This document shows positions 15,724-53,412 of a stretch of 64,000 nucleotides of DNA, one piece after another. Under the pieces are notes generated by a model, which worked only from the letters and a program-made list of their open reading frames with translations, was not told the DNA's origin and did no database searches. Position 1 is the first letter of the stretch; each line of letters begins with the position of its first letter. The stretch spans positions 10 through 64,009 of the forward strand of contig JAIKVY010000246.1 of assembly GCA_024685275.1 (NCBI GenBank), written 5' to 3'. The translations under genes and the position numbers were made by a program. The stretch is from Clostridia bacterium (lineage in GTDB: Bacteria; Bacillota; Clostridia; Christensenellales; DTU072).

Positions 15724-15752
15724 TTGACATAAGCATTTATTAACTATAATAT
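15724..15752 (+). promoter_or_regulatory. Sigma-70-type promoter candidate for the giant gene
   Basis: The -35 is TTGACA (15724-15729). The -10 is either TATAAT (15745-15750, 15-nt spacer) or TAATAT (15747-15752, 17-nt spacer). An A-rich UP-like tract lies upstream. This would give a ~25-nt leader with no GGAGG before the ATG at 15781. Confidence 0.55.
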
Positions 15753-15780
15753 AAATATATATTTATATTTAGCGCGAAAT

Positions 15781-15858
15781 ATGAAGAATAGAAAAAAGTT
15801 TTTATCAGTATTTATTTTAATTGTCTGCATAGTACTAGCACTATGCATGGTTGCATGT
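15781..15858 (+). other. Lipoprotein signal peptide with lipobox (cleavage before Cys26)
   Basis: MKNRKKFLSVFILIVCIVLALCMVAC|SERV has a basic n-region, a hydrophobic core and M-V-A-C. It is followed by a G/S linker, NNQGGGSSSGSGQ. Confidence 0.8.
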
Positions 15859-18800
15859 AGTGAAAGAGTAGCAGAAAATGAAGAAAACAATCAAGGTGGC
15901 GGTTCTAGTTCAGGATCAGGACAAGTTGTTGATATCAAAACAGAACCATTAAAGAGTTTCAACGATTTTACAAAAGCAGTTAAGGATTCTTTTGCTGATG
16001 ATTTGGTTGATAAAGGAAATTATGTTGAAGAAGATCAAAATTGGTTAGACATTAACCTTGTTCTTGAATATAAACGTCATGCATATGAAAAAGAAAATGG
16101 TGTTTACACATCAACAGCCAAGAAAACAGTTCATTTCAGAATTATCATTCAGATGAAAATATCCCTTAGGGATAATAGCCAAAGTAGAGCGCTTATTGAG
16201 CTTAATGATGTCTCGAGAAACGTTACCTATCTAGGTTTCTATTACAACAACTCAACAACATATCTAAATGTTGGTGGAAAAAAATACTATACAGAACAAA
16301 TTAACTTAACTGCAATTGGAACATTATTAGTTGATGCTCTTAAATTGACTAATTCTGCAGATAAGACAGATATAGTAGGAATTGTTGTTGATGTCTTACA
16401 AGGTGTAATTCCAGTTGAGTCTATTCAAGGCATTTTATCAACAGCTTGGAAGTTATTCTTGTTCAAAGGCCCATATGATATTACTTATTCAACAGCAACA
16501 ACAACTTTTGATGCGCAGGATGATCAAGGAAGAGTTCAAAAGTACACATACCCAAGATATAGATACATTAACGAATATTTGAATTCAGATTTCATTTTCG
16601 GAATGATTCATCAAGGAAGAATTAGTATTTCTATTGCAAATATTGATTATAAACTTGCATGGACAGAATTTGGTTTACCAGATTTAGACCATATTCTTGA
16701 AGATGTTATTGGGTTTGGTTTGAAAGATATAGTTGAAAAAGATTGGCCAAAAATGAAGATTAGTCTTCATGCTATAACAGAACTTAAGAAAACTAAAAAC
16801 GATGATCCAACATATCATGCTTATAATTATGCATTCAATGGATTTGGTTTGAGTGTTTTAACCGATACTGGAGAATATGATGTCTCTTTGGAAGTAACAC
16901 CATTTGTATTTGGTATAAGAAAAGAAAGTGGAGTTAACGTAGAACTTGGTTCATACAGTTTGAACGATAAAGGAACTGTATATAAGGCAGGAAGTTTTAC
17001 TAACCTTGAAGCAAATCTTAGATTAAGTTTTGATAGTGAAGAAGGCGAAAAATTAACCATCAGTTCTTTGATTGGCAGTAAGGTATTTGATTTAGGCGAT
17101 TTAAGTTCTATGCCTATTAATATCCAAGAAAAAACTCATTACACATTTGATATTGGAATATCCGCGTCACTAGATTTGTTTGAAAATAAGAATAATTATT
17201 TGGATGCAAAAATCAAATACAATGGAAAGAAGATAATAGGTATTTACCTTGTTCCAGATTTAACGCAGACAACAGTTGCTGGTCGAGGAAAATATTTGAG
17301 TTCAATTTATTTAGATTTTGGAAATTTGACAAGTGGTGGACAACCATTCTTCCCATCCACTGTAATTACAGGAATTGATTTAACAACTGCATTATCAACT
17401 CTTATTGGCGAAAATATAATGGGCATTTTAGACCCGTATAGAGGAAAAACCACAGCGACAAGAAATGCTGAAGGCGAAGAAGAAAAGAAGGGTGGTCTAG
17501 ATGTAATGAAATTGATAGGTCTATTAATCTCTGAAAATATAATGACAGATGATTTTGGAAATATCTCTTACGAATACAAATACATTACATTGCCAAAGAA
17601 AAATGGAAGCAAAGTCTTAAAATTTGCATTTGATAACTATGCTATTAACACCATTGTATCAATGTTTATACCAAGCATTACTCCAACTATTAATAGTGCA
17701 GGAGAAACAATATACGAAGATGGAATTGGAATTAAAGGATTATCACTAAGCTTAGATTTTGCGCGACCATTTGATTCAATTAGATTAAATGTTGATATAT
17801 CAGAATATACATCTTTATCACTCGGTATTGGATCAACAAATGCCGATGGAACATATAACACTGGCCTATCTTATTTTGAAATACCACATTTTGATTTATC
17901 AGCAGTAGGCCTTGATTCTAATTTAAAAGTTCCAGATGAAGCAATTGCTAAGAGACTTAGAGGTGAATATAGAGACTTAGATGCAACTTTATCTTATACT
18001 GCTAGTTTGTCAGGAATAATTGAAATTGGATCTACTGAAAACACTGTAATTAATTTAGATTCTCTTGTTCAATACGTTGTTGAACAATTCTTAGATAATT
18101 TAGGGTTATTAGCTCAAATTAAGATTAACTCATCAAGTAATTTGAAGATTAAATACGTTGTTCAGTTAGGTACTGCACTTAGCAACTTAGGAACATCTAT
18201 TTTAGTTTTAGATTTGTACTTGCTAGATGAAGAAAATAAAGAAATTTACACTGCACCTTTCCTTGAATTGTATTATAGGGGAGACACAGACACTATTTAT
18301 ATCACAACAAAAATCAACAATGAAGCTAATATGGTTGACCAACTTAGTTCGCAACTACCATTTATCAAGATTATAGATGGTAATATCCCTAACTTATCTA
18401 TTTCAAATGTTGGAATAGCGAACATGTTAAAAGGAAAAGGTTTTGATATAAGGCCTTTATTTGCAACAATTGGAAAAGATATTGGATCAGGCATTAATAT
18501 TTCAAATGCTGATGTTACACCTACTGAAGATGGTGCTGATGTTGGCGGCGGAAGTAACATTCTTAACATAATTGGCGGAGCATTAAAGGGTATTAATGTT
18601 GAAAATGGAATGCTCGGAATTGTTATAAACGAAGATGTATTAACGATTCTTATGGGAATGTTGAATGTTGGAATTAATGGTGGATTGCCACAAATAAATG
18701 CTCATGTTGATTTACAACTAGGTACACAAAATGAGCTAACAGATAACGGCGAATATTTATACAAGATTACTCATACGGAAAAAGAAATAGATGTAACAAC

Positions 18801-21800
18801 AATTTACTATGTTGATAAAGAAACTGGAGAAACAATTGATTATCAAAATAAAAATGATTTTGGTGAAAACATTGTTTTAGATTCAGAAAAATATACAACA
18901 TTAAAAGTAAACGAGTTATTAAAAGATCACGAGTTTGTAAGAGTTCATTTAGGAATATTAGATAGTAATGGAACAAGAAAAGAAGCGTTCTATATTGATT
19001 GGACTTTAATCGACACAATAAATATTACAAAATCAAATTCAGCTAAACCATTAGCAGCATTTAGTGCTGCAGCATATGTTGATTTAAAGAATTGGGTTAA
19101 TACTTTAGTTGTTTCTGTAAATGTTGAATTGGAATTAGGCATTAGTGCGACAGAAGAAGAATACAATTATACAGATGCATATAACCTCTTATCAGCTTTA
19201 CAATTAGCTGGTCTTGGAGACGCTATTACTCAATTAGCAAAAACCTTACAAATACATGTTGATAACAGATATTTAAAAGAAAATGGCGATGGTGTTGGAA
19301 CACTTTTAGGATTAGCAGTAAAAGGAAATGTAAACATCGGTAATATCTTTGATAGTGAGGTAAGCGTTGTTTTATTTGATAAAACAGTACTTTTACCAGA
19401 TGGTTACAGAGCATCAGATGGAAATACTTATCAAATTATTATTGGGATTTACGTAAAAGATGGCGATGGATATGTCGATTTATCATATCTAGGAGTAAAT
19501 CTTGTTAAAATTAATGACCTTTCACATACATATCAAGGAGTTTTAGCATCAGAATTTGATGCATTATGGAAAGAAAGTTATGAAGAAGTAACAAATTCAG
19601 ATGGCACTCAATCAACAACTGCGTTTATAGATTATGAATATCTATTAAACGAAGTTTATTGCCAAGCTATTTTAGACGAATTCTTGTCTAACCAATATCA
19701 TGAGTATGCGTTTAATGAAGCGACTGGAAAGGGTGAATGGGAAACGAAATATCCTGTATCTAATTATAAGTACATTGTATACAATGACAAACTATTGAAA
19801 GCTGGCCCAGAGGCAGATCAACCTAATTTGTATTATGGAAATTTAGAGGACGATTACATCATTTACATATACGAAACATCAAAACTTATTAATTACTTTG
19901 ATATAGGAACCAATGATAATATTCTCAGATTAAAGAAAGGGTATTCATCATATTTAGTTAATAGCAATGGAACAATAACTGTTAAAAAAGGCAATCAAGA
20001 GGAACAAATTAATACAGTAAACGGAGAAGGTGGTATTCCTATTACCATTAATATCTGGGAACTTCAAAAAGCGATAGAAACAAATGCATATGGTGGATCT
20101 ACATTTGGAGATGGAACTATCTTCTTAAATAAAGTTAAAGCTTCAGCATATTCATTATATTCAACAATAGTATCACAATATGCTGGATATTTTGATAATA
20201 CAAACACTGATGACAATCCAGTTGCTCGAAACAATTTACTTGCAATGTATTGGGAAATAGTAAATGATCAAAAGGAAATTTGGGAAGTTAAATATACAAA
20301 TTCAAGTGATTATTTAACAAGTGCATCTGATTTATCATCAAGAGCTTTAGATAATATTAGAAGTAGATATCCAGAATATAGAGATGCATCAGCTTTAGTA
20401 ATAAGAGAAACAAAATATTACTCTGATGAAATGGAAGTATTGAGAGAGGCTTTAGTAAGAGATTATATAAACGGCTTGGTTTCATCAAATGGTGTAGAAA
20501 CCATGTCAAATAATCTTCTAAAAGCAATAACTGTAATGAAGTTTATGAAGAACAGTACAGATATTGTATTCAATATTGAAAATGCATATGGAGAATATAT
20601 TAAAGCACAAAATCTAGAACTTTCACCAACATCTAGCACAGAAAAATCATCAATTTCAATTGATGGTAAAATAGCTCTTAAATTGATATATGATAGAGGA
20701 GCTATCACATTAGAATTAACAAAGAATGTCTTTGAAACATTATTAACAGCTCTTGGCTTTGGAGAAGTAACAAATTATATTTCTATTGATTATTTAGGAT
20801 TAGGAATTGATTTATCGGATGGATTAAAAGTTCAAATTAAACTACAAGTTGAGGATACATACAGCATTTCACTAGCTATTAATGAATTAAAGGCAAGTTT
20901 AGATGAAAGCAAACGTGAAGATTATGGTTTTGTTATAACAAAAGACTTTACAGAAGGTGGTACAATTGAAGGTATTCCAAATGCTTTCCAAGTACAAGCA
21001 GCTATTGAAATATCTATAGAGAACATATTAAAACAAACGAATACTACTGGAATAAATGATTATGATTTAACGGCATTATTGACAAGATTATTTGGTGGTT
21101 CAGCATTTACAAGAACAGAATTAAGCGAGTTCTTGGCAGAGATAACAAAATTGAATCCTGAATTAACAGAAGACGCTGTAAAAGCAGAAGCATTTAGACG
21201 ATTAATTAGCGATAGTTTAGGAAACGAAAAGAAAACAACTGAAATCAATACTAGAAGTTCTGAAGCTTACACTGAAGCATCAAAGAATGGTGCTCAAAGA
21301 GATTCAGTAGAACATTTATCATTAGCTTGGGATAAATTAGTTGATGGAGCTATTATTCTTGATATCGGAGCTTTGGGTATCGAATTCTTAGTTCAAATTA
21401 TTGGAGATATTAAAGCAGTTCTTACTATTGAAGCTACTGCATATATTGATATTACAGAAATAAGATCAAGTAGTTTACAGGTAGTTTTAAAGAGAACTAT
21501 AGGAAATGAAACAGATGTTGTTCTTACTCTCTATTATGATGGGCGTACAAACACAAGTAAGACAGAGTTTACTGGAGACGTATACATTTCAACAAAGATA
21601 TTTGATATAGGCAATATCAAATTAACAAATGTATCTGCAATTTTCGGAGATATGTTTAAAACATTCAACAGTGAATTTATTGGAGATGTACAAAATTCAG
21701 TATATAAGTTCTTTGGAATAGAAAGAACAGAAGCATCAGGACAAACTCCATCAAACGCTTCAAGCGAAAAAATAAATGCAAATAATGCTGATGGAATGGT

Positions 21801-48800: not shown

Positions 48801-51800
48801 ATTATACAATAAAGATGGTAACGTCAATGTTGTTACTGCAACTGTATATAAAGATGTTGATGAAAAAGGAAAGATTATTAATGGTCAATCATTGAATGTT
48901 TCTGTAAAAGTAATGGATAGAAGCATTAAATATTATGAAGTAAGTTATAAAGAAGATTTTAATAACGCCTTATTTATTGGCCTTGATGATATCGTTTATT
49001 CTGTAGAAAATGGCGGAGCAAGTAATACATATGAATTATTGATTGATCCATATTCATTACAAAACCCAATGTTAACAGAAGAATCAGATAAGGTATTTAA
49101 TACAGAAAGTAATGCGTATAGTGAAAACTTCAGTTTAGAAGATGGCAATATTAATCCTAACTTCGTTTACTTTAGATGGGTAAGAGCAGTATGCGAAGAT
49201 GGATATACTGTTTTATATAAACTAGGCTCAGACAACTATAAGATATTTGATACAGACACAGGCGTTGCTACTAAAGCTACAAATCTCTATACTGGTAGAA
49301 ATGTAACAATCGAATTAAAAGTTGGTGAATCAATAACAAATGGAATTGAAGAAAGTGATAGAGTATTTGCAAAAGAATCATTTACTTTATCAATTGCACC
49401 AAAGATTGGTGGAAAAGCAGCTGATGAAGGATTTAATGAAAAGATAAATGCAAGAATACTTGATATGACATATTCAAAAGGTAATGGATTACCTAAGGAT
49501 ATGTACTATATTGACGTATATGGAATTATAGATAAATTCTCTACAGAAGTAGAATATGAAGAAGTAGAAATAAATAAACCAATCATTGGTAACGATAGTG
49601 CAAATTATTTCTGGAGAGATTCAAGCAAAGCCGATTTAGTATCTCACGTATTTGAAGAAATCACATATGATGATACGGATATTAATACAAATAGATATGA
49701 TATTGTTTCAATGGAAACAGACCCATCTCTTGGCGAAATTCCAATTAGAATTACTACAGTTAGTGCATACGGCCCAACATCTGGAAAGACAATAGGATAT
49801 GGCGGTGGCGTAGGTAGATTAATCGCTAAATTTGGTAATTCAAAAGAAATAGGCCTTGGTGGTGAACAAACGTTCGATGTACAAATTGTATATGTAAATA
49901 GAACACTTTATGCTGGAGATTCAAAAGGCAAGGGATTAATATTTGAGTATGAAAGCTTAGATAAAGATGGTAATGTTGAAATAAGAAAATCTGCTCCATT
50001 CTTTAATGAAGAAGATGGTGCATTCTACTTTGACCCATATGTTGATTTCAATAGAGAAAATAACGGATTTGAATTAGGAGAAGTAGATGGGCTTGGAAAT
50101 ATAACAAAGAATGGTTCACAAGGATTCTTGTTATATGGTAAATATGGATTATCTGTAAGATTTGTAACAACTAAGTTTGATGAATTATTAAATAATAAAT
50201 TAAATACAACATCATTTGTACACAATTTAAGTAAACAAACAACAATTAATGTTTCATTCATTTCAGCAATTGCTGGTATTAAGTATTCAGGTGGTGTATA
50301 TGATGCAACTGCTGTCTTAGAAAGAACATATTCAACAACGTCACAAAAAGAAGTTGCAGAAAGAAGTGCTCAAAGAATTGGATTTACAGTAATATTCAAG
50401 TCAAGACAAGCAGGTTCTGATAGCGTAAGTAATTCAGTTGTAGTAGGCAATCCATCAGATGGGTATAAGACATATAAATATGCTACTATCGCTGGAACAA
50501 ATTACGAAGTTAATGAAGGTTTGAGCGTAAATATTTACAATGATGAATTCTTAGATACAAAAGTTGGAAAAGATACTAGAACAGGAGAAGATATAACTGT
50601 TAAGATATTAAATAAAGATAAACTAATTTTAGGATTAAGAATATATGAATATATTGGACAAATTGGTATATCTACCCAAATATCTAATAAAGTATTTAGA
50701 AGTGGAAGCTATAACTTCTACTATTATGGTAAAGACTTTGCTCAACCAATTATTTATGAATATAACTCATATGCTAACGACTATACAGCCGAAGAAGTTA
50801 GAACAGGATATTATAATAACTTAATATTATCTACATCAGAATTTAGTGGAACAATTGGTTCAATTAAATACAATAATGGTATATTAATGAAATTTGTAAT
50901 GGATACAACGTTTGCTTTAACATATAAAGGAACAGATGTTTACTTCAATTTAACAATTCCAGGATATGCATTAGGTAAGAATGGCCAACAAAAGATAAAG
51001 ATAGTATTATCATCAACAGAAGAATATATTTATATGGCTTTACCATTAATGAAGTATGGATATACTAAGTCAATGAATGTTAATTCATATATTATTAACA
51101 CAGCAACATTTGCAGGCACTTATGATGGCCATAGCGTAGATATTAAAGGATGGGCTTATCTAACTTATTACGATAGCGTAATTAGAAGTATTGGTTCAGG
51201 AAGTGTTGTTTGCGAATATAGCGATGGAGTATTCTATTTGTATGATCCAGAATTTGGAAGCAATGCTGATAGCGGATATAGTAAACAATCAGCTATTTCA
51301 TATTCAACGCATACTGGTATGTTAAATGTTGATTCTCCATATTTCTTTATTAATAATGGTGGATTACCTTTACCAGATTATGTAAGGATTTACACAACGA
51401 GCAAAGCATTATTCAACCATTATAAAGAGGATATAGAAACATTACAATCAGGGTATTCATCTGCATTGAATACATTTATGGCCCAAAACACAACAGGAAA
51501 GGATTATTGTTCTAATAAAGCTGTAACAAAATATCTTTCAGCTTCTTGGACACATGCAAGAGCTAATTCATTAAAAGTTAATTATAAAGATACAAGCTTT
51601 GGTTCATCGTTCTGTATGAGTGTTGATGGACAAGTTGTTCAAACAACAATGACTTCAACGCCATGGTTAATTTCTAATACATCTGGAACAGTTCAAGGAT
51701 TCAATACAACAACTGCATATGGAGATGAGGATATTATTCCATTACCATCAACAACTGAAGTTTATAATTCAAATATTCATATAATTTATAAGAAAGACTA

Positions 51801-53232
51801 TGATGGCGGAAATGCTGGCTCAGGCTACTTTGTTGATCCAAGTTCAGATGTTAAATTAATGTTCAATGAAGATTATGGATATAGAGTATTCTATGTAATT
51901 AATGGAAAAGAATATTATATTAACTTTACTGATATTAATGGCGGTGGCACAACAAAAGATAGCATTAATAAATGGAACTTCAATAAAGTAAGATTCGCGT
52001 CTGGCACTTCTCAATATGCATACCTAACATTAGGTGGAGCAGATGGACAAGTAGTTTCATGGAGATTTAGTAATTTAAGCAATAGAACTATGATCGGAAC
52101 AAATATTCCTTCAGTAGTTTCTGTTTCAAGCGCGAATGATTATACGTTGCCTCAATTATTAACTGTATTCTACACAAAGAATGGAGCCTCAACAGCTTAT
52201 TTACCAGTTAGATATGGATATAATTTAGATAATCCAGATGAATATAAAGGCGTATATATGAAAGCAAAATCATCATATAACACAGATGGTGGTGATTATG
52301 AAACAGAAGGCGGAACTCCTGTTTACGCAACAAGAATATATTCTGAACAAAGTGGCAATACAACGCAGATTAAAGTAAGTAGTTATGGTGGCCATAGTAT
52401 AGCGACAACATCAATTGCACAAAATAGTCTATATCAAGCAAAAGTAGCAGATGATAATACAAAGAGAGCGTTTGTACAAAATGCAAACCAAGTAGCATTC
52501 ATTACTTGGATGGTAGATGCAAGAGTTGCATATCCAAAGAATTTAAATAAATTCAAAGGAGAAATAGCTTTAGGTGCATATGGCGATTATGGACAATTCT
52601 ACTTTGATTCAGATAAATATAATGAAAGTGATGGTTTATTATCAGGATTTGTTAAATATTATTCTGGATTGGTAGAAGAGAGATTTAACGCTGGTTCATT
52701 CTATTTATATTCATTCAATACAGAAGAACCTTCTAGCAAAGATGGTGGTTCTAAACCATACAGATTTACCAATTTAAGTGCAAAATCATTTAAAGGATCT
52801 ATAAATCCAAGTGCAACATATTTAGGAAATGGGGCAGGTGATGTATATAAGAATACACAAAAGATAACAATTAATATTCCACAAGGAACTAAGTTTGATT
52901 TATCTTGGATGCCTATACTTGTAGGAAGTTATACTCATGTAGAGGAAGGAACTGTAGATACAGACTTTGGAGTTCTAGATTATATATTAGAGCCAATACT
53001 TGATGCTATGACTGGAGATAAGACATTAACAGCAACAGAAACAACTGCAATGTTATTACCATGGCAAAATGCAAGCGTTAAAGATGAAAAGACTGGCCAA
53101 ACAAAGAATTTTGGCGATACAATGATTGATACATCTGAAATAAGAAGCTATACAATTAAATTAAATAATGTAAGACTTGGTTCATATGACTTCTCATTTG
53201 AAGTAATGGTTAGAATAAAGAAGGAAATTTAA
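15781..53232 (+). CDS. Giant (12,483 aa) predicted surface lipoprotein. Order: N-terminal lipid anchor, ~8,380 aa of diverged beta-rich super-repeats with nested helical insertions, then a ~4,100-aa prealbumin-like/Ig-like adhesin-type region.
   Basis: The frame runs uninterrupted from ATG 15781 to TAA 53230-53232. The longest ORF in any other frame over the same 37 kb is 129 aa. It has a lipoprotein signal peptide and the internal architecture listed in the sub-features. No LPXTG and no C-terminal TM anchor were found. Confidence 0.9.
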   Translation: MKNRKKFLSVFILIVCIVLALCMVACSERVAENEENNQGGGSSSGSGQVVDIKTEPLKSFNDFTKAVKDSFADDLVDKGNYVEEDQNWLDINLVLEYKRHAYEKENGVYTSTAKKTVHFRIIIQMKISLRDNSQSRALIELNDVSRNVTYLGFYYNNSTTYLNVGGKKYYTEQINLTAIGTLLVDALKLTNSADKTDIVGIVVDVLQGVIPVESIQGILSTAWKLFLFKGPYDITYSTATTTFDAQDDQGRVQKYTYPRYRYINEYLNSDFIFGMIHQGRISISIANIDYKLAWTEFGLPDLDHILEDVIGFGLKDIVEKDWPKMKISLHAITELKKTKNDDPTYHAYNYAFNGFGLSVLTDTGEYDVSLEVTPFVFGIRKESGVNVELGSYSLNDKGTVYKAGSFTNLEANLRLSFDSEEGEKLTISSLIGSKVFDLGDLSSMPINIQEKTHYTFDIGISASLDLFENKNNYLDAKIKYNGKKIIGIYLVPDLTQTTVAGRGKYLSSIYLDFGNLTSGGQPFFPSTVITGIDLTTALSTLIGENIMGILDPYRGKTTATRNAEGEEEKKGGLDVMKLIGLLISENIMTDDFGNISYEYKYITLPKKNGSKVLKFAFDNYAINTIVSMFIPSITPTINSAGETIYEDGIGIKGLSLSLDFARPFDSIRLNVDISEYTSLSLGIGSTNADGTYNTGLSYFEIPHFDLSAVGLDSNLKVPDEAIAKRLRGEYRDLDATLSYTASLSGIIEIGSTENTVINLDSLVQYVVEQFLDNLGLLAQIKINSSSNLKIKYVVQLGTALSNLGTSILVLDLYLLDEENKEIYTAPFLELYYRGDTDTIYITTKINNEANMVDQLSSQLPFIKIIDGNIPNLSISNVGIANMLKGKGFDIRPLFATIGKDIGSGINISNADVTPTEDGADVGGGSNILNIIGGALKGINVENGMLGIVINEDVLTILMGMLNVGINGGLPQINAHVDLQLGTQNELTDNGEYLYKITHTEKEIDVTTIYYVDKETGETIDYQNKNDFGENIVLDSEKYTTLKVNELLKDHEFVRVHLGILDSNGTRKEAFYIDWTLIDTINITKSNSAKPLAAFSAAAYVDLKNWVNTLVVSVNVELELGISATEEEYNYTDAYNLLSALQLAGLGDAITQLAKTLQIHVDNRYLKENGDGVGTLLGLAVKGNVNIGNIFDSEVSVVLFDKTVLLPDGYRASDGNTYQIIIGIYVKDGDGYVDLSYLGVNLVKINDLSHTYQGVLASEFDALWKESYEEVTNSDGTQSTTAFIDYEYLLNEVYCQAILDEFLSNQYHEYAFNEATGKGEWETKYPVSNYKYIVYNDKLLKAGPEADQPNLYYGNLEDDYIIYIYETSKLINYFDIGTNDNILRLKKGYSSYLVNSNGTITVKKGNQEEQINTVNGEGGIPITINIWELQKAIETNAYGGSTFGDGTIFLNKVKASAYSLYSTIVSQYAGYFDNTNTDDNPVARNNLLAMYWEIVNDQKEIWEVKYTNSSDYLTSASDLSSRALDNIRSRYPEYRDASALVIRETKYYSDEMEVLREALVRDYINGLVSSNGVETMSNNLLKAITVMKFMKNSTDIVFNIENAYGEYIKAQNLELSPTSSTEKSSISIDGKIALKLIYDRGAITLELTKNVFETLLTALGFGEVTNYISIDYLGLGIDLSDGLKVQIKLQVEDTYSISLAINELKASLDESKREDYGFVITKDFTEGGTIEGIPNAFQVQAAIEISIENILKQTNTTGINDYDLTALLTRLFGGSAFTRTELSEFLAEITKLNPELTEDAVKAEAFRRLISDSLGNEKKTTEINTRSSEAYTEASKNGAQRDSVEHLSLAWDKLVDGAIILDIGALGIEFLVQIIGDIKAVLTIEATAYIDITEIRSSSLQVVLKRTIGNETDVVLTLYYDGRTNTSKTEFTGDVYISTKIFDIGNIKLTNVSAIFGDMFKTFNSEFIGDVQNSVYKFFGIERTEASGQTPSNASSEKINANNADGMVTAATIINLTFNDSNIGISLAKASILNLIYVFLNIDLSEQLSEITMGLGIDLRFDKDLSVSVGIDLGHIVSRNNEELAAIMDSVLENRDGNKSSAWQELQTMLVEVLQQEEDISPEAIVEAFDTILNDIKSNNVSKYGTKYSDSELREVAWDTVYWLSKGVTYDEAIEVYPEPGETETRITIDVFNILTGELIDINGDETKVLIKVGKINASMNKTMLDPDVDFVGFKEMSQIAKIGLALGGYAQFEISGNDNGEYSFDYLFELVYKQIFDNRDPDIGFQVDINANDVFAQTNWIDIKANVDLTKLKDLSNIELYLSITSDTNHKKFEQLSKLREYLKSIEEANNSYYNAWNYAHNASIYQQGNSDFENLAILNDYEHNYKALVALMDDVYAKYNAMYQVSSQEELYEKLWKQLYGIVGDFYLGNVLGLYIILDDNGVGNIYLDLAFLGIEPVVLKDVSKFLTKIGESFEIDYQKFLDGLFGGSSKEEDEESPNNAYGVKAKNADDETSLAELAQLLVSINANKNNTFLLVKITSAAIYALLESFGVKDIKMYFGEEPEEIAEDDTMIYPQYSPSGEIRLFGYHEDIEDNVVVKRWYDLLSVGVKLQNLMFLDIGIIQPSLDIVRGDIRILPKEFIEQDNKVVSYYTELDEWETDLRLSMDGSIDVIADMITNAETGYTDDINQMNLGPFLREILGEQLQLDIILQTLSDIELDTHFNLQISVNILRIYQALQTDMSNMGIGDYIGLVGIIAPELCLEIISRDVDTHKETVIMGIYLIKETNRYGEEYLSLYVDLGKLHISPIKVTNLVKVAPLLINSFSQLFANEEEAENAESLQLLTYFLNLTSKASEISKSKDIDLNTIRNSAKEYVESSDFVSLRELNKLYDNNASEEVIQEKVNEIVDGVTRAKNAEREAKPVEDFIAVVVGNDYGFTIEAVAEVLIKILDEAFNDIKTIERRSFEHMMKDVISDEIEVEASGYNRIVAQMRTLLEDSDGEKKLAWLNVIEESSNYLDNADNLKLANDLYTSINNVNRAIYNSRYSENKIYDVAWDALLWMFAGISYEDATKVYPIDAGGDLTVITIDIFNRLVNGYIKIEDDGVQSKYDELKESANDEQTMDNAILMRGLEYFMYYYEADAFDKYVEYINQMLFYINKYKTAHHVDEVQDTRVNNVRKAEAYDELIINNFLKKEDKDIFTAEFNKNYSILVSGNETVAKATTWDTIVSFFNGAYTKLVSALDYVNTKAKEIYKTEFKDKENDDLPTVFNIVNRTYKYDANQSETANTTYTYNSIVTILFKTVAWEYLFISGQAENTDARPYKTLFEDLAIKESSNTQGVIGQAQVKEYAWEKLREDAENVAKGVYPYILRNDIVLEVSETENISKYGFGYTVSYSKSTKDKEHVWALYVVDTNIANTFEAYLLSGSSKLPEMVVEAAHGTGSAKIALLNENRLIAVEAELGRFKVKLAFNSAGLYMSKKDLVKNVQRNKLNYDEYTEITVAEFLAEDETKYAEFDEKSQYVYAKLDLDLELKEEQTDFNFTELVSTLLDQIGVDLVINNNQIGIELLLKLLTHLDSKFRLSVEARVNLFSLFKGDLSTTDIALTLYSGEGYRDVVLQVVLGSYVDVNDNKEKNFVFVDLSRFNIQPLIIYDAINYVRTLLDSLNSSNATFSPYDYRYAKNGAELFTDVLAYGIMHTAMNADNSEEYEKIVLGFDDPTGVGASIESAAIYVILNLLGMGQIKDYLEKAAHITLEANIFGVPNYRDGMSYSDKYRDLIRLSLALKAFEEDGGVSATTGLELDLGIHGIELSLNQKKYILDLDSVENLQNHLLPENYAEINNSLPPIILSTTIMLNIAGAETEESNINVSPISNLLDTINPDLSPSLSNIIGQILLKIVDNNAMTVAIDLKAQISLGRGEDTDYLNHILEESIIRIAIRAWYTYEETTSDKNKEWAVVTYSNGNLYIDLENLNIDKIMIRDATSLIMKKDEETQNAWAEVARLWKAATGDTSIGIEVDAILGTHGLYIAMQKAAIKSIINIFGFGDALVFRDDLIQIYLETRRLDEDLWINNNKTISLFAGANIAFLKNGQFAIDSLATGQISSLNPAILINLGLEGIYIGFENRENWDVDSPEKYIEVNDINTIRFGTNLSLDFSDSTGIYDFRELLNSILDMTDIDLAGIGIQKDIRLILDIVQADIANVSVNASVSVYLGDLISSALSGAGINIDIDQIIERLQASIEIVFKRDNSDEKVTSIKIVYIRGDAYIDLSNLNKNLGKAKVEGVLDLVSSLIGGNSEAAEAANGFVKVVNDYVNSFVAKNATEAITLEDITKTYISLAMSGQTGLEILVVYGAVQAAIRYLLGSESIAEVMAIVATASNPSLSLNLNKKVEIRVNLSVPSRFKNDDQYIKLTAIEKSIEEYYDIAEGITYEEQYLSSGSQTIFSDTVGSGEDKTIKTIIEDVISKSSLYKLFNLTDSKKSAIVDQWEKDGLLSSINIRNYSVTEWLSRLDAKYMFYSRNDCKPLVFNLIALYLYEDKASINFNNLFSNTITGLNVSVDTSLSLTEDEQVALLQELGNYKKVEGETYYTLFEFFSEYFSGEFENDDVKDSDYKTFIRDIAINYIKGAITLNAIWLESLEGEIKTISLDGSSYIIHTAKYDEYYDKLLVKAWDKLIENFENKLGLGTITNNELLLYAIAQFSYEKARNILDDNASESEIKSEAYNQYVEFVEEYSILDYEGLTETTNGKLKQSIIYKNLLYTYLDAIDVELLTGINFDSFTGSLSRTKEELIGDIRDIVKGILYGVRKYSYDLLTNVDSEYRSDYERVVLSSTAELEFTYDVLYDIKNIYLDVIELFGQSDSVSAARTILVDIGQYLYNEESTIQEITSITNPSDLHLLNAAIAILEKYSALFSNLFTVQDVSNYVNNTYSADSWDSLFDTFDFNAYDTFDELKLDVLRIYYENQLQAYDFGALYDNLTIKTYENIYSVIKNKYENALSIRDVKDCDEIRGKLFKAYAGPGDNTWDNLIYILSNYYFAYHNAKKIILTEAKTNVNKYLKLLVNNGTAFTIENYSNTFNGEIISLNLLNDYSSANIVNMALAFLTNQYVDISDVNTLRNINTTFTQASSDELVLYAGCYIIYQELSDNDTIKAKIAKAYKDYSEGNYVNGLQDVNINSILVILNKIYESLSFEGKSLAKLIVSQLISVGTAIDPDIYLNTDEELKVEIEKINKDSLVKERAYNFMISSSIDLEMYTQLNSVKQSIIFELIYLNNPQDRNDINNVLLSFWNGTLADVLVSFKNNKALLTETNIDIYYQMFGKIFSDTAKEELYKLFTEVDSTTGMYRQIITIFDNLVQDTYVDIMTDYDKAVVVSRVYEKLSEYLPDNVAGAQSAGYNALYAFTKIFVDTIYDFINIDFEAMIENILLSYDDAKYKNLTSNEVLSYYQSVIKVVEDQLETMIFNQFKDQIKTYAANENNLIYQVEKTAKDFLYIDNAPVGTLGEEDEGTLSDITTSYNINPDNKVEKDGDDVVIYTKEGNNYNKVTDTSSLTSGQKTYNKYDITAKIVVKLVPTVCSNNSYQFPLNAPLGLTSLYTTLQKTVDITKTGQKVIIDGTGYTVFVGWVDDQSILRKDENDEIVSDEFIKELTIELTYENCAWLNSTDNSWGSGKWSSYFIDTTDSDKNNKLKELGNQFIEKIETEHSDWISDAVANAINTLKAEYYQAIQDVLKLVDLIVGTEAAPAGVTVETIEDKVGSATTSVELYENASKLIKIISECERISGNDYGKANYETMYSYKLNALVDFYNGKNVGIKTNFLKEVMSATNYKLAFLDLDEVNSYNLNIIVGGIELANYIDIITNLSEAMIEGYLESENIEVLRAKERKDVSSYLEQTLKNTLLSFDAAKYRKALHIFKEKMETTFNNNNGFVFYSDSDTIIKSKSNYNYSQLIDKIIKDGESILLKNYVSETNAGYLILNSRINATGQKFGSNENWFRFAYNLVKSQQYISAENWTKVKDVLSLDPSATGFSLEVNDASQLKEILEYAILYTLTDDSNAINEYGLVNAEGNDNVYLTNQEELILANELYARLKDIGRPFENISVFKNIYSSSGSEFNTRLERAIYFNAKTIIEKDSKEYLDKEAEEAVINDQEYTLLLRESAALDVFNIYLELVGNNVELTLTKAHDIAEASNYEYLRNLIEDNGGANIQSVTVEYNDFFTYVRDLYTDSSIKDSVRNIVNYVYNYAGLTFNRLTINSADVISKLYPEYIYHYMDSKKETIYNDIIGILGKIYKNNDETFNIDDVEGIKIVELINGLSSIVVDSNYKAFTSMLSNLGLKEDEVTVDNIFDMVAYIYGNNYDVFSGISPLNDANNYVNGLKTIMDSMRDKLKDIYLNPNSKASRINNYTYNKISRIEYYDYAILNQVDYERIGKYSASIESYVLNLVNALIKNTYGLHGLFNDISSADADKYGGDLNSSLAGDSLIAYKALKGFVFYSGNFNYYIDNYTNNIRNVLKQQYFDNKTLMEYLIYGDELLGEPYEIVETPEIGQIENYYEKNTINSTFVKTEDTVIDDGKTYYISTGNRLAIKLANDFVDLATNMIETDKTTISNDLGINVDTIKNSGTTIEKAAAMYNIANKYKDLNDGANDFTQAFKDHYKHKPALAIDNISEYLTESIWKEYYANFNSLYTAVEDVLKMKETCQGFLEDENVQLSDIEEFLSKINYKDSANFLNIFMEKTKQNITDTLETEIKNSKYILEVAFDYMDSSIIQAGEVAQVDISLALDLSNTKLQAENEVISIDPVTGDKTSSIEDILSDSEKDEFISYTDLQLYLAFNGYLSVEFGAGETDLADIIKLVLTNINLSQIGVYFDKSHIMLGKINARIGLDVDKILKIDDDEELAKAVMAFIDIEYQLIDNGESNQEVRFDQQVISLYIYEGKVYLRIEIFDAEICLGLNLNLAKLLLNLLGVRKDEDEVVSQNLAKFNDAIAKKFNGNYSENILRKVYNAAKQGSDASVIEALIRGSSNEMSIVLTADILIEVLRALITDESVIENVSNLIYVIITSGEIEIEYGKDFGINLNLRKNLTQSLSGKTNVSYNVNLGLLKDTEFSMNKSVKVNGIIQTTENEKFINFSRELETLNNSGFFNKFHIMTLDVENLLNTALNGGAVNLDIATTLGKVFGDRIQIGISLEFNADVMRTIIDWSELFGVLGSLNINPAFYLRVFDNFKGNIRLDLSLDFNVALLSTAISEDEDRVYNAFDVKLRAYRGDLNIFNIYELSGVLNTTKDNPIFSPTFYMDLGDSGPEKYKVSSKDLYEFLHINLVEMMLNILGSDAHAHVDISDASNADDEEALSDTEQGISETILGFEGENIANLDFGKILKSITFGEGKLGIRLSEAIANELIKIINKNWTFAEIGNFSLDINFVDNTIALNIPLDASLKDSNGNELERSKLKYGVKISNLYVYFGTVVDFLGDNKTEEDLFADYPDINDYVWIEESNLSLKITDDANTIVDLSSVTSNIMSGLELQILSNEDMLDVGLGLTLRTYIDFSDLANLQFELIIKINGNRAISVAYVGSMDDGNVYLDLSGIGYPQVYLSGIKLGDMLNDILQKLYDSFDKSQNTIDSSNAAGYVSGSISSGEATAIKYPTIANVGIGNNILIALIDRDLFNVAMSGALLKTLIGSLTSSLNFIPDFANLQVGYEHDVISGIKLVYDEGQHFAISLNFEHSYTYMVTSKNLNANVEAKSHMPLAGVNKADYVCIDELKNLYLSLNLELSLITMNPNGDKSDTVEELEALLENLLGMSANSVDLQFQDANVILGVSVKIGFDLTNYANSVLIIEITYNDETIIGLYYVEGQLYASLSGLGLFDIKLNAVDIMSALSGILTGTGLPITSEGIKIKEIILNAISLLESGARGTATWSKDVENTLGIDDEYAEYLKQYKEKHDNGEYEQLTAAQTETIKSTINNELIEMNQKYGNVWNSTKFREKYDEVMDTIGFGEVVATDAITKAGGVITVMLYNGSFLISPKSEALSSLLGMDIPAFDNFAISMNLDNGINNLDLKVRIDDSNTLDISIPEKDGLSLYLNYGVGEGAGGMDISLANKLSDYIPDSLSTFGAISGLTFGEQGFNIDIPNLIDSLLNFLSLEGLNINLESKGDYWTRRTSYTNYSIFNASAPQMYADEDKGYTTRDWEKFKNLLITIYAMGEIGSIINLFVSAYTFNPQNLFNMITGIAGLAGKINDVFSNTADLYNGLNKNIRYQKLQRNARGRGNIKLYKDTANVLSLEVNIPNISSASILQADLVQFGLILRGNLVEKLAEAVDSLGFVANTILGFFENIKDVISALDDGELDLNKIIGSFTGGKGLYLNGDTIDALIKSFSKTEDTSSYYSKMYGTVLDSNGNPVEGATVTYTHSGVTHTTTTNNVGRYYFTELPMTGHLDETHDLSLIPAVRASFYAKYNLGGLTIDDLSKEQFISGLKHGMAGSDTGDIGQDSEVTYEGVTYVYHYYTYGQANLGNPRAGYFYKKSDYGTISVTKKGSTTTGLNGILLEPSIVAGAKHIDNLVITTTDSEEGTSDIIINGYVINTTGMTDSSFETYESVANIETNYKNNLNNRIGGVNVVYNLGEANINTSTSAENTGSFVLHAKEYGTLRQAISGNTILHQFELTKANYVDHHNIIVTYNDAFAYFFDDSSRTAYQKLDEYISQIIGTDGTGALAQEKNNGNAYEFNVYFGMTIVNEHLISITGNVTAKDNDEKISIPNPEDFEIWVAVAEHNTSDYKLIGVCDFYDLLPDDFSATMDIYGNFSISSEKLTLENKDGSISGKDIKVKFRSSKYKNCDYLFTYNDSTNKYNNTKIITADSVTNVSGETFETALSIICNHVFTLRAENWTTEYENASAFAALRLRIGSDLVDKTYKQSADMIDDELKQGTVEIIADDYVYVEIWLSSAVINNVIYKVDNLLGGLDNMMDISPTATIQTSTISDVDTTTQSDFNFRYYKYTELTTKYDSLYENFPELKRGRYNETKDISVGDRIYLSESQYYQAVFSALPKIPIALVHGLLADKAYANLGLHKTIQSDALKTIFKIVDILGFLPGLERNDDVDTDTSLQDFIALLLDCPKFPEIILTAVQGLLGLLNLIPYAKFVFIPINFVLNQVISVFEKLIDAVFELIDYLLPLLYNLLPLESGYNMFNTYDLKGSPLESAKFAYTIKGTEKDSNEVETETTIESYNSSLASLFYEESGQKELGDYSVKTAQGVENVTLYRQTDSVDRSVYAKVSLNNGSIFGALESIQLFVNGASYTSTIESKYAELEEDFRTGKSNDTNAQWSYDYEKYYGRNGTFFSGEIVDKYGNRGSGYSFSLPDASLEHTIKATDIRILPIYEKGEKVAFNHSYYNAAGTLTTGAYGSANFSNNLQFMNDWIGTNNTNNYSVTDIYYFDPITEKKVVYYRYFVYDAYGDKYSVGQSVKQDRYQELEINLSSGLNLRHVVDINSDTILFSRYKSVDDNGAIALMGILQVEEDWQNPTKIVLYDPYDLTDFEVHGGTWATNNGGQVVRNYNPNVTVYDTLANRAKIDFDDGASTGTYGANVFWDFDTFKACKSDVTTHLNGYIGNTIYSEIEVEIKLISLESDNQGDEETTVSAKAELLEVAANTRFDPRAETVEEFMNKLCEGFEIYYSAANSTNGKEKTYLYNDVTWSLDYVETEYKDAKGNVIRSYDSLVDYDNAYINIKYRTYGVDENGNAYASNTGYSSMVIKLNEVINYTANGVEGELEGTIGGIKRDTESEKIFGVATINPLNNTKPLETMQKLKKFDKVYLNSGSVTTDWEVIKNSFALIGNEKGLTLEDYDVLDTSAQTYYVSYAITDATGNIQKVIIKVVIQSSGIVGIEETNQGSENDRNQVLILPNGEVQADVNEDPIKYVLDTLHLNKNVTLIYDNGGKEVVSLNEDGKFNEDLDSNIKAQYVSYVTGIDENNKYIIENFILIEGKGGLSYLVPSLEYNKTQDFDIYAQVGVQGYTKYQMNKAVTDILVSYIPLTVTKTQMESESYDLLYESTTKYNMLFLNSIYEEVSKNPLNATTTAKKAAAWEYYYNLVSSKLDENSNVNPYYDVKVKQQLDSIYLGVQVKHSTLTYNGAKARWYNNTIQANAGVISINKLEEVYNTINRNIANVQKTVTEKKALAYDEWYNNYTRGEIIFYRKVDEKILTGANSIVINVADKMSIDSSDIGNKLEFYFNGLTDERQAIDVIWYDKDKIVENINKNIGYNGYLTYGDVVIFDPLFGNQTRKNLIIQLSSIEIVSFGISAALMYNGDIEKFLPEYIIETSPGVSYSYKVEFNPYDESSIANLLQYYLYDTNVSHYYIITSTSTGETKIINQIEDGVRMFKFATDSQGMPIWKYKNDTNGDGDYTNDGLSYDGKTYTSILVLVQSANYDEENPSTPKWSAWVEYDFNHAYFNDASLAQDNRVIDSTITNITKFYVDGLSVGTDISKSGDKYYITIDPSIVDLSKGLTFDVVTKGYRFIPKSMAGGVTEFTNSDFTNVMTLAGRIDLDNIENFYEKTYIDTQIVFGDKVNTIQRINIRLINSAISTIKEATEIIYYDKDDNVIDFNTHAYTAFENLLDSLPVRADVTGLVNGLKKTISIPVKWDYIEEYTKTKVIDDVTYRVNSQEQYPKARAYIGSKTFGYIVREVELKIKQETITSITGLPERNTINVDPYSNTKKMDDFASIYTQARITTSLGNEYDVSIVIDSSNIDYMLYKENDFESQQFTIYFNVGNTVKTEHSNFDIRQGYPITAILESRKVESIKIFDESGEEVLDPVGNMYNQIDFSKYHYAVIYGSGADAVRVDDSDVTILGTEDIEYKPAGGRFTIKATVGQGDLLQESQIEVVITKAELITIVYDGEESELSNTGFGLGDDNKSDSNKMLSYKHTTLTAGQEYYELERIVIEPFIGFVEYGKYVESDSIKYGAGITNTSSIDYTKYGLPNTITACINIGNNEYETIELNVAWDYKTVLDDMTLNGGLYNKDGNVNVVTATVYKDVDEKGKIINGQSLNVSVKVMDRSIKYYEVSYKEDFNNALFIGLDDIVYSVENGGASNTYELLIDPYSLQNPMLTEESDKVFNTESNAYSENFSLEDGNINPNFVYFRWVRAVCEDGYTVLYKLGSDNYKIFDTDTGVATKATNLYTGRNVTIELKVGESITNGIEESDRVFAKESFTLSIAPKIGGKAADEGFNEKINARILDMTYSKGNGLPKDMYYIDVYGIIDKFSTEVEYEEVEINKPIIGNDSANYFWRDSSKADLVSHVFEEITYDDTDINTNRYDIVSMETDPSLGEIPIRITTVSAYGPTSGKTIGYGGGVGRLIAKFGNSKEIGLGGEQTFDVQIVYVNRTLYAGDSKGKGLIFEYESLDKDGNVEIRKSAPFFNEEDGAFYFDPYVDFNRENNGFELGEVDGLGNITKNGSQGFLLYGKYGLSVRFVTTKFDELLNNKLNTTSFVHNLSKQTTINVSFISAIAGIKYSGGVYDATAVLERTYSTTSQKEVAERSAQRIGFTVIFKSRQAGSDSVSNSVVVGNPSDGYKTYKYATIAGTNYEVNEGLSVNIYNDEFLDTKVGKDTRTGEDITVKILNKDKLILGLRIYEYIGQIGISTQISNKVFRSGSYNFYYYGKDFAQPIIYEYNSYANDYTAEEVRTGYYNNLILSTSEFSGTIGSIKYNNGILMKFVMDTTFALTYKGTDVYFNLTIPGYALGKNGQQKIKIVLSSTEEYIYMALPLMKYGYTKSMNVNSYIINTATFAGTYDGHSVDIKGWAYLTYYDSVIRSIGSGSVVCEYSDGVFYLYDPEFGSNADSGYSKQSAISYSTHTGMLNVDSPYFFINNGGLPLPDYVRIYTTSKALFNHYKEDIETLQSGYSSALNTFMAQNTTGKDYCSNKAVTKYLSASWTHARANSLKVNYKDTSFGSSFCMSVDGQVVQTTMTSTPWLISNTSGTVQGFNTTTAYGDEDIIPLPSTTEVYNSNIHIIYKKDYDGGNAGSGYFVDPSSDVKLMFNEDYGYRVFYVINGKEYYINFTDINGGGTTKDSINKWNFNKVRFASGTSQYAYLTLGGADGQVVSWRFSNLSNRTMIGTNIPSVVSVSSANDYTLPQLLTVFYTKNGASTAYLPVRYGYNLDNPDEYKGVYMKAKSSYNTDGGDYETEGGTPVYATRIYSEQSGNTTQIKVSSYGGHSIATTSIAQNSLYQAKVADDNTKRAFVQNANQVAFITWMVDARVAYPKNLNKFKGEIALGAYGDYGQFYFDSDKYNESDGLLSGFVKYYSGLVEERFNAGSFYLYSFNTEEPSSKDGGSKPYRFTNLSAKSFKGSINPSATYLGNGAGDVYKNTQKITINIPQGTKFDLSWMPILVGSYTHVEEGTVDTDFGVLDYILEPILDAMTGDKTLTATETTAMLLPWQNASVKDEKTGQTKNFGDTMIDTSEIRSYTIKLNNVRLGSYDFSFEVMVRIKKEI
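16261..39384 (+). repeat. At least 14 diverged copies of a ~300-400-aa protein module, marked by a conserved beta-hairpin 'junction' signature
   Basis: Junction motifs, with exact nt from in-frame translation: YLNVGGKKYY 16261; IYLDFGNL 17305-17328; IYITTK 18295-18312; YVDLSYLGVNLVKINDL 19471-19521; VYISTKIFDIGNIKLTNV 21580-21633; IYLDLAFLGIEPVVLKDV 23119-23172; LYVDLGKLHISPIKVTNL 24169-24222; FVFVDLSRFNIQPLIIYDA 26686-26742; LYIDLENLNIDKIMIRDA 27670-27723; AYIDLSNLNKNLGKAKVEGV 28570-28629; VYLRIEIFDAEICLGLNL 36571-36624; FYMDLGDSGPEKYKV 37636-37680; VYLDLSGIGYPQVYLSGIKLGDM 38497-38565; LYASLSGLGLFDIKLNAVDI 39325-39384. Each is preceded by h-x-h-Y-h (e.g. IIGLYYVEGQ, ISLYIYEGK, IIGIYVKDGDG). 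Confidence 0.8.
28990..36070 (+). other. ~2,360-aa Gly/Pro-poor, predicted all-alpha insertion between super-repeat copies 10 and 11
   Basis: It lies between the strand-like ...VEIRVNLSVPSRF (ends ~28980) and ...GEVAQVDISLALDLS (starts ~36070). The sequence is Y/N/D/E/L/I/K-rich and lacks the junction signature. It contains recurring aromatic motifs: KAWDKLIENF, EAYNQYVEF, ERAYNFMIS. Confidence 0.6.
40927..41061 (+). other. Carboxypeptidase-regulatory-like (prealbumin/transthyretin-fold) domain
   Basis: YGTVLDSNGNPVEGATVTYTHSGVTHTTTTNNVGRYYFTELPMTG matches the classic G-x-V-x-D-x-x-G-x-P-[VI]-x-G-A-x-V ... T-x-T-x-x-x-G-x-[YF]-x-F-x-x-L pattern. Two weaker look-alikes follow at ~41480-41705 and ~41975-42245. 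Confidence 0.7.
42889..43310 (+). other. ~140-aa hydrophobic, Pro-punctuated helical patch inside the beta-sandwich region
   Basis: ALPKIPIALVHGLLADKAY...FPEIILTAVQGLLGLLNLIPYAKFVFIPINFVLNQVISVFEKLIDAVFELIDYLLPLLYNLLPL contains TM-length apolar stretches, unlike the polar context around it. Confidence 0.6.
44500..53229 (+). repeat. Array of highly diverged Ig-like beta-sandwich modules with a Big_4-like signature (LPxx[IV]x[VA] ... [IV]x[VI]xW[DS]), plus one DUF5011-like module
   Basis: Examples: FMNKLCEGFEIYY...YNDVTWSLDYVE (~44737-44855); DWEVIKNSF...LDTSAQTYYVSYAITDATGNIQKVIIKVVI (45217-45385, DUF5011-like); AIDVIWYDKD (~46470); LPVRADVTGLVNGLKKTISIPVKWDYIEEY (~47605-47700); GLPNTITACINIGNNEYETIELNVAWDYKTV (~48679-48780); TLPQLLTVFYTKNGASTAYLPVRYGY (~52140-52240). 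A preceding [IV]-[DN]-P-[YLF] motif recurs (TINVDPYS, LLIDPYS, VEFNPYD). Confidence 0.5.
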
Positions 53233-53395: not shown

Positions 53396-53412
53396 TTTAT
53401 GGGAGGCACAAA

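Follow-up and report, generated by a model that had tools for sequence, protein, structure and literature searches.

A 12,483-residue predicted lipoprotein and its family of giant modular proteins in uncultured Clostridia

A 64,000-nucleotide stretch of DNA from an uncultured Clostridia bacterium (contig JAIKVY010000246.1; the whole stretch is called the window below) carries one open reading frame (ORF) of 37.45 kb, 15781..53232 on the forward strand, whose 12,483-amino-acid (aa) product is referred to here as the giant. This ORF is real, a single coding frame under selection. Sequence comparison places its product in a family of giant lipoproteins that is rare and uncharacterised, and none of the other members found here is as large; the family, with its new repeated module, is defined in this work and adds to a known kind, the giant bacterial surface proteins. 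Bacterial proteins longer than 10,000 aa are rare, and those described are mostly nonribosomal peptide synthetase and polyketide synthase enzymes or highly repetitive adhesins (10.1101/2023.11.21.568195; PMC11573180). No description of the giant-lipoprotein family was found in two surveys of giant bacterial proteins (10.1101/2023.11.21.568195; 'The neglected giants', PMC11573180).

A 1.4-MDa protein on what is predicted to be a single lipid anchor is conserved across uncultured Clostridia of very different GC content, and the transcription, translation and export of the product of a 37-kb gene represent a notable cost to the organism. The family opens the question of what uncultured gut Clostridia display at their surface; its definition helps to annotate thousands of residues of 'dark' gut-metagenome sequence and to spot pieces of these genes where assemblies are broken.

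The reading frame and its family

The frame of 12,483 codons is unbroken from the ATG at 15781 to the TAA at 53230–53232, as originally predicted and as found again on re-reading, and the nearest in-frame stop 5′ of the ATG is a TAA at 15730. At the base composition of the window (GC 29%, A 39%, T 31%), the probability that a random codon is a stop is 0.092, so the chance of 12,483 codons without a stop is ~1e-522. Codon-position composition is uniform over thirteen 1,000-codon tiles (GC at first positions, 0.37–0.44; at third positions, 0.14–0.20), thus the entire frame looks coding. The original argument that such a frame persists in AT-rich DNA only under selection is borne out by this chance estimate and by the coding periodicity found throughout. 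The second-longest start-to-stop ORF within the region has 129 aa (21885..22274, minus strand), exactly as had been stated, and the longest stop-to-stop run in the other frames is 229 codons. The claim that the DNA holds no near-identical tandem array likewise agrees with what was found: Tandem Repeats Finder reported two trivial 2-copy arrays only, and a direct-repeat search of the region returned two 40-nt pairs that were judged to be chance. The mature product has a computed mass of 1.395 MDa, a computed pI of 4.5 and a net charge of roughly −740.

A search for homologues, with the profile of the repeated module (see below) against 1.84 billion representatives, retrieved 39 proteins or clusters, a rare family of giants, mostly of 6.5–7.9 thousand aa, from metagenome-assembled genomes (MAGs) labelled Clostridia or Bacillota, themselves uncharacterised. 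Complete relatives have 6,529–7,879 aa (P0005, P0006, P0007, P0010, P0011, P0012, and P0022), and BLAST aligns the giant collinearly with P0005–P0013 from aa 1 to ~12,280, the complete giants at 20–35% identity. Closer fragments match the middle of the giant (P0008, P0014, P0016, and P0018; 31–45% identity), and its N-terminal 1,500 aa match P0001 and P0002, two fragments from short ENA contigs that are ~40% identical to it and both carry a lipoprotein signal; P0001 adjoins a divergent HAD hydrolase, as the giant does in the window. The C-terminal 1,500 aa match P0003 (35% identity), on a 121-kb contig with a GC content of 50%. Family matches in collinear order cover 85.6% of the giant. Among the relatives held at NCBI, MFA5448907.1 ('carboxypeptidase-like regulatory domain-containing protein [Clostridia bacterium]', 7,809 aa), MCL2629995.1 (same name; Firmicutes/Bacillota bacterium, 6,732 aa) and HKL74311.1 ('hypothetical protein [Clostridia bacterium]', partial) share collinear homology with the giant over its whole length, although the giant is ~4,600–5,900 aa longer than members of this family and its GC content is 29% rather than 41–50%; the database name of MFA5448907.1-like proteins reflects one small domain only.

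Independent assemblies contain the same intact genes repeatedly: P0012 (7,879 aa) was found in nine from NCBI, and the P0010 cluster (7,264–7,268 aa) in 19 from Logan, which argues that giant frames of this kind are real and maintained. In a Clostridia MAG at NCBI (L065, GC 41%), the gene is interrupted solely by two 100-N scaffold gaps, and a metagenome scan added one JGI metagenome contig with a family member (L066, GC 50%). In ENA ERZ28658026, scaffold_31 (L064), a 7,315-aa gene directly precedes the P0003 gene (2,316 aa), and a frame change at L064:9960–10040, equivalent to aa ~10,191–10,197 of the giant, breaks the homologous frame in two; either the assembly contains an indel here or the gene itself is split or decaying. 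Because relatives in MAGs labelled Clostridia/Bacillota have GC contents of 41–50%, compared with 29% in the window, the family is not tied to low-GC reduced genomes. No family member was found in IMG/VR viral contigs, the N-terminus of the giant had no match among contigs of the GTDB species genomes, and a word-indexed protein search with aa 7300–8800 returned no match even though relatives exist, which reflects a limit of the word index.

Twelve diverged modules, inserts and a conserved C-terminal region

A recurring motif, '..YY..G.LY.DLS.LG...I..D', was spotted on reading the sequence and seeded an iterated hidden Markov model that converged on a module of ~260 aa. Iterated over the whole family, this profile yielded 201 instances spread over 41 proteins, and the giant has 12 of these. 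When each copy was scored by leave-one-out within the window, eight of 11 reached 19–30 bits, compared with at most 7.8 bits for shuffles; modules 1 and 2 fail this window-only procedure, and module 10 is found by the family-wide profile alone. These three were therefore given an independent test with a profile of 139 instances from which BLAST-similar sequences had been excluded, and they scored 16.7, 27.4, and 29.4 bits, respectively (shuffles ≤3.9). Module 11, marginal in the window, is strongly conserved across all family members. Copies of the module are just 13–21% identical to one another, which makes the duplication ancient. The original statement that the DNA is not a tandem array of near-identical repeats holds, but the protein is internally repetitive, with twelve very diverged copies along the chain. 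The parts of the giant are as follows (window coordinates, strand, feature, and basis):

15781..15858, +, signal peptide and lipobox, aa 1–26: MKNRKK, hydrophobic core and MVAC, with Cys26 as the putatively lipidated first residue
15859..16620, +, acidic Gly/Ser (G/S) linker and conserved N-terminal domain, aa 27–280 (collinear family matches)
16621..17541, +, module 1, aa 281–587 (16.7 bits with the orthologue-excluded profile; shuffles ≤3.9)
17692..18768, +, module 2, aa 638–996 (27.4 bits with the orthologue-excluded profile; shuffles ≤1.6)
18820..19704, +, module 3, aa 1014–1308 (leave-one-out, 19.5 bits; shuffles ≤7.8)
21205..21798, +, module 4, aa 1809–2006, the C-terminal part of the module profile (leave-one-out, 27.7 bits)
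22321..23355, +, module 5, aa 2181–2525 (leave-one-out, 28.0 bits)
23521..24402, +, module 6, aa 2581–2874 (leave-one-out, 25.4 bits)
26104..26895, +, module 7, aa 3442–3705 (leave-one-out, 29.5 bits)
27019..27810, +, module 8, aa 3747–4010 (leave-one-out, 20.3 bits)
27847..28749, +, module 9, aa 4023–4323 (leave-one-out, 23.2 bits)
28750..35850, +, central lineage-specific insert, aa 4324–6690, ~2,400 aa (no family match in its core)
35851..36840, +, module 10, aa 6691–7020 (29.4 bits with the orthologue-excluded profile; shuffles ≤−1.4)
37945..38703, +, module 11, aa 7389–7641 (family-wide profile; window-only leave-one-out marginal, 5.6 bits)
38716..39516, +, module 12, aa 7646–7912, the modelled copy (leave-one-out, 24.3 bits)
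39541..39738, +, small helical insert with three predicted helices, aa 7921–7986 (residues 562–627 of AlphaFold2 model 1; block pLDDT 71–86)
40927..41055, +, CarboxypepD_reg-type Ig-like beta-sandwich, aa 8383–8425 (PF13620, E=1.4e-10, 41.8 bits, cutoff 32.3)
41056..53229, +, family-conserved C-terminal region without an anchor motif, aa 8426–12483, ~4,000 aa (collinear matches)
53230..53232, +, stop codon TAA (sequence reading)

Much of this architecture is common to the family, which shares with the giant an N-terminal lipobox, 10–12 module copies, a CarboxypepD_reg domain behind the last of these and a conserved C-terminal region. Residues 1–980 of the giant are collinear with P0001, P0002, P0005–P0012, P0024, P0026, P0027, and P0039, and the C-terminal region is collinear with P0003, P0005–P0013, L064, L065, and L066. 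Relatives of ~7,500 aa gave 5–9 or more matches to the first profile and 10–12 matched stretches in the full search; CarboxypepD_reg is present in 1–5 copies per relative. The extra length of the giant is due to inserts at aa 1309–1808, 2875–3441 and, above all, 4324–6690. The core of the last of these (aa 4871–6663, nt 30391–35769) is the sole stretch of the giant without a family match, and its codon periodicity is normal. The central insert has no detectable similarity to its counterparts in P0014 and P0018; however, because P0014 carries an insert of similar size at the matching position (1,846 aa, compared with 1,926 aa in the giant), the central insert is best regarded as a real, fast-evolving feature of a sub-clade and not as a chimeric join.

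Plain self-BLAST of the giant finds almost nothing beyond one 70-aa pair, aa 2138–2204 and 3035–3104 (nt 22192–22392 and 24883–25092), which is 41% identical over 70 aa, lies in inserts in both cases and shares '..VAWD..L.W...G.SYE.A..VYP'. A shorter motif, 'AW[DE]', recurs in other inserts of the giant and in inserts of P0001 and P0014.

The linkers that follow the modules are acidic and of low complexity, and AlphaFold models them with low confidence. They are marked by an Asn-Ala (N-A) dipeptide, which occurs 159 times in the last 30-residue windows of 194 module ends from 41 proteins, where ~36 occurrences are expected. The surrounding context is weak, [A/P]-x-N-A-[A/P/D/E]; examples in the giant are at aa 573, 925, 2003–2016, 2512–2524, 2846, 3678, 4003, 4330, 7330, and 7627. 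A cleavage site, a cross-link and a cap are each possible roles for this motif.

Known domains account for very little of the giant. In overlapping tiles, CarboxypepD_reg is the only Pfam domain above threshold, and a Big_4 match near aa 10965 is sub-threshold (E=0.19). An NCBIfam search of aa 1–9800 returned nothing, and searches of PDB sequences with the tiles returned nothing meaningful beyond one chance match (E=0.025); ~99% of the giant has no match in Pfam, NCBIfam or PDB. The original description, 'mostly unassignable to any family', is accurate with respect to Pfam, NCBIfam and PDB sequences, but a family of homologues and twelve module copies do exist. The profile of the module had no match among PDB sequences, and Pfam at permissive settings returned nothing but single-member noise for 41 modules, with no recurring family.

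Structure prediction was carried out at two scales. AlphaFold2 model 1, of aa 7360–8330 (971 aa) with an 11-sequence alignment, is poor (pLDDT 49.9), and Foldseek found no significant or meaningful match to it. Model 2, of one module (aa 7640–7925) with an alignment of 41 paralogous and orthologous instances, has a mean pLDDT of 75.1 and a pTM of 0.61, with core blocks at 82–93; it shows module 12 as an alpha/beta unit of ~11 strands, several of them 8–13 residues long, and 3–4 helices. Foldseek comparison of this model with 350,542 PDB chains (best E=0.11, TM ≤0.27) and with BFVD (best E 0.039) gave no fold match. Within the PDB and BFVD Foldseek searches and the Pfam searches, the modelled module therefore appears to have an undescribed fold.

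Predicted membrane anchoring, probable role and alternatives

The giant begins MKNRKKFLSVFILIVCIVLALCMVAC|S and continues into a G/S-rich linker. Its sole strongly hydrophobic segment is aa 7–25 (Kyte-Doolittle 3.2), which follows the positively charged MKNRKK, and residues −3 to +1 are M-V-A-C, read as fitting the lipobox consensus [LVI][ASTVI][GAS]C. Across the family, the aligned lipobox Cys is present in all 14 true N-termini, where it ends the signal peptide at position 25–38, and 12 of these 14 pass the PROSITE-type pattern. Lipidation at Cys26 is predicted. No anchor other than this putative lipid was recognised. The lone LPxTG sequence, LPMTG at aa 8423, lies well within the chain, 4,060 aa before the C-terminus; there is no C-terminal sorting signal, as the giant ends in ...FEVMVRIKKEI and has no hydrophobic segment there; the C-terminus of every family member is a beta-type segment without an anchor; and Pfam scans of the giant detected no SLH, LysM, CWB or other wall-binding or anchor domain. 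The original statement that the giant lacks an LPXTG, SLH-like or C-terminal transmembrane anchor therefore stands. Neither lgt nor lspA was found in the 64-kb window.

The reading that we favour, and hold to be somewhat better than an even bet, is that the giant is a lipid-anchored, extended surface fibre, adhesin-like or a scaffold, that makes its contacts at the distal end. The precursor would be exported by Sec and lipidated at Cys26, and the lipid alone would hold it in the outer leaflet of the cytoplasmic membrane, while the remainder would project outward as a very long, acidic, modular fibre. Its order from the membrane would be the N-terminal domain, the twelve modules with flexible linkers and inserts, CarboxypepD_reg and the ~4,000-aa C-terminal region, whose distal position would make it the likeliest part for contact or binding. 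If extended, the fibre would probably be well over 100 nm long (an estimate), and it may serve as a spacer, an adhesin-like fibre or an envelope scaffold in gut-type uncultured Clostridia/Bacillota. The original proposal of a surface megaprotein held by an N-terminal lipid is, with the lipobox Cys shared by all 14 intact N-termini, still the best reading. Pfam, NCBIfam and PDB sequence searches of the giant detected no enzymatic, transport, secretion-machine or protease domain, and this result, together with unrelated neighbouring genes and a context that is not conserved, fits a stand-alone structural surface protein.

Several observations weigh against this reading. The lipobox as originally read (Cys26, MVAC and the G/S linker) is present, but the strict PROSITE-type (PS51257) and G+LPP patterns both fail on the giant, as they do on its closest relative P0001, only because residue −4 is Cys. 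No stalk or adhesive/ligand-binding domain exceeds the Pfam threshold besides the one CarboxypepD_reg. The modules are far more diverged than typical stalk-adhesin repeats, which hints at specialised roles and not merely at spacing; the structure models cover ~10% of the giant; and the division of the L064 homologue into 7,315 and 2,316 aa means that not every copy is intact, unless that division is an assembly error.

The same anchoring and the same absence of binding domains would also fit a protein that lies along or within the envelope, wraps the cell or spans the wall, and contributes to integrity, spacing or an S-layer-like coat. In favour of such an organiser of the envelope, the giant is very acidic, modular and conserved as a single copy beside housekeeping genes, and Ebh of Staphylococcus aureus, a 1.1-MDa protein, has been linked to envelope integrity. 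We nevertheless regard this alternative as unlikely: the SLH, LysM, CWB and other wall-binding domains sought with Pfam were not found, and the rarity of the family (39 clusters in 1.84e9 representatives) argues that it is not a general envelope component. At the other extreme, a chimeric assembly or an unexpressed relic is scarcely credible. The window probably comes from a metagenome assembly, one relative has a frame break and another has scaffold gaps, and no Shine-Dalgarno sequence is visible before the gene; however, at 29% GC only selection can keep a run of 12,483 codons free of stops, the order of segments is collinear with that of complete relatives, the unmatched stretch has normal codon periodicity and a counterpart of matching size at the same place in P0014, and no DNA repeats able to drive misassembly were found.

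Two further alternatives would make the giant more than a passive fibre. Asn-Ala autocleavage is known from nodavirus capsid maturation, and if the N-A motif of the linkers were a cleavage site, for the giant itself or for a protease, the product would be a polyprotein processed into about a dozen surface subunits that remain associated or are released. The ~4.4-fold enrichment of N-A at module ends and its position in low-complexity segments modelled with low confidence are in keeping with processing, but the motif is weak in context, absent from the tested window at 72 of 194 module ends and equally suited to a structural cap, and no protease domain was found in the giant or the adjoining genes; we consider processing improbable. 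Stacked modules might instead form a continuous groove, by analogy with the AsmA-like/VPS13 repeating-beta-groove proteins, and move lipids or other hydrophobic cargo between the membrane and a second surface, which might belong to a host or a partner cell or be an outer layer. The giant is predicted to be anchored to the membrane at one end, its many tandem modules are rich in long amphipathic beta strands, and the weak top Foldseek matches of the modelled module are sheet-plus-helix ligand platforms (CD1, MHC-I and hot-dog folds). Against such a conduit, which we think very unlikely, Foldseek found no match to TamB, YhdP, Lpt or VPS13 with the one module modelled (best E=0.11, TM ≤0.27), none of 41 modules gave an AsmA/DUF490 Pfam signal, the anchor is a lipobox and not a transmembrane helix, and a continuous groove would be interrupted by the helices within modules and the disordered acidic linkers between them. 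There is a small chance overall that the modules represent a new fold and that the giant is either a polyprotein that processes itself at N-A motifs or a bridge that moves cargo; if true, a self-processing assembly or cargo bridge of this kind would be a type of machine at the cell surface that has no described precedent among Gram-positive-type bacteria.

Comparison with known systems places the giant, under the fibre reading that we favour, nearest to the giant fibrillar surface proteins. Like Ebh, SiiE, LapA/Bap-type proteins and the Clostridia repeat proteins of 10–30 thousand aa, it is megadalton-sized, modular and predicted to be extracellular, with an anchor at one end and at least one Ig-like domain, and it shares with giant fibrillar adhesins a probably host-associated organism. 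It differs in that its predicted anchor is an N-terminal lipid, whereas fibrillar adhesins have an LPxTG motif, a type I secretion system retention module or a C-terminal anchor; in that its repeats are ancient and 13–21% identical, not near-identical tandem arrays; and in that neither Pfam nor PDB contains its repeated module and it has no recognised adhesive domain. The resemblance of the giant to these proteins is thus one of probable role, whereas its anchor, its type of repeat and its domains are different. A sortase-anchored (LPxTG) adhesin was rejected, as LPMTG is internal and both a C-terminal hydrophobic segment and recognised stalk or adhesive domains are missing.

The giants of Omnitrophota are described as rich in transmembrane regions, with divergent SecA DEAD-helicase domains and secretion genes next to them (bioRxiv 10.1101/2023.11.21.568195). 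They resemble the giant as very large, mostly unannotatable ORFs from metagenomes that need structure prediction by subregion; unlike them, the giant has housekeeping neighbours, and its single hydrophobic segment and the lack of any SecA/helicase Pfam match set it apart from the Omnitrophota type. AsmA-like or repeating-beta-groove proteins (TamB, YhdP, and VPS13) also combine an N-terminal membrane tether with many beta-rich units and are hard to detect by sequence. The modules of the giant, however, include helices and have disordered linkers between them, and neither sequence nor fold matches these proteins; its producers are labelled Clostridia, with no sign of a second membrane. An AsmA/TamB-like beta-taco was rejected after Pfam searches of the tiles and of 41 modules, the PDB profile search and Foldseek with the one modelled module had all failed to return a match.

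Start region, neighbouring genes and host

One candidate promoter precedes the giant:

15724..15752, +, promoter-like site TTGACA-17-TAATAT (10 of 12 matches, 29 nt 5′ of the ATG)

This site is a candidate only, because promoter-like sites are no commoner here than in shuffled sequence. No Shine-Dalgarno sequence is visible on reading 15760–15783 (...TTTAGCGCGAAATATG), whereas the downstream htpG gene has GGGAGG 5′ of its start region (53395–53413); the 37-kb gene may therefore have a weak or unusual initiation of translation.

The neighbours of the giant are unrelated housekeeping genes, and this context is not conserved among relatives. Upstream, on the minus strand, lie genes for an SLOG/LOG-like protein, a HAD hydrolase, an Fe-alcohol dehydrogenase, TilS, HPRT and the CCA-adding enzyme; downstream, on the plus strand, lie genes for HtpG, a metallophosphoesterase, glutathione peroxidase, a thioredoxin-reductase-like protein, MarR, a copper ATPase and a flavodoxin. 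The genes that adjoin the giant include none for secretion, a sortase or a protease, and Rfam and tRNA scans of the window detected no RNA genes.

The best matches to HtpG, none above 55% identity, are proteins of gut MAGs labelled Bacilli, Tenericutes, Oscillospiraceae and Erysipelotrichaceae; the organism is therefore of Bacillota type and, for this gene, has no near relative among the GTDB species representatives. No homologue of the giant was found at the gut-MAG loci of these HtpG matches. Host association is suggested by these best matches from gut MAGs and by sample codes that resemble those of pig and ruminant gut studies; the wall-less or thin-walled, small-genome organism of the original inference is conjectural. 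Among the best HtpG matches is 'Candidatus Fimimonas' (L004, DVOC01000065.1), a chicken-gut MAG that NCBI taxonomy files under Myxococcota; this label is odd among Bacillota gut MAGs, and the organism labels of these MAGs should therefore be treated cautiously.

At the left end of the window (1–7302), an ORF at 10..7302 on the plus strand is open to the window edge, where frame 1 reads S-I-L-M..., and encodes the C-terminal part (at least 2,433 aa) of a second large protein, with no Pfam match and no hydrophobic segment. Homology of this ORF to the giant or its family was considered and rejected, as no similarity was found. It contains recurring '..YDG..' motifs, and its C-terminal stretch looks like beta-helix repeats. 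Between this ORF and the gene for the CCA-adding enzyme lie small candidate ORFs of 212–214 aa without a Pfam match, at 7955–8599 (+) or 7963–8514 (−) and at 8555–9193 (−), the first two of which overlap on opposite strands.

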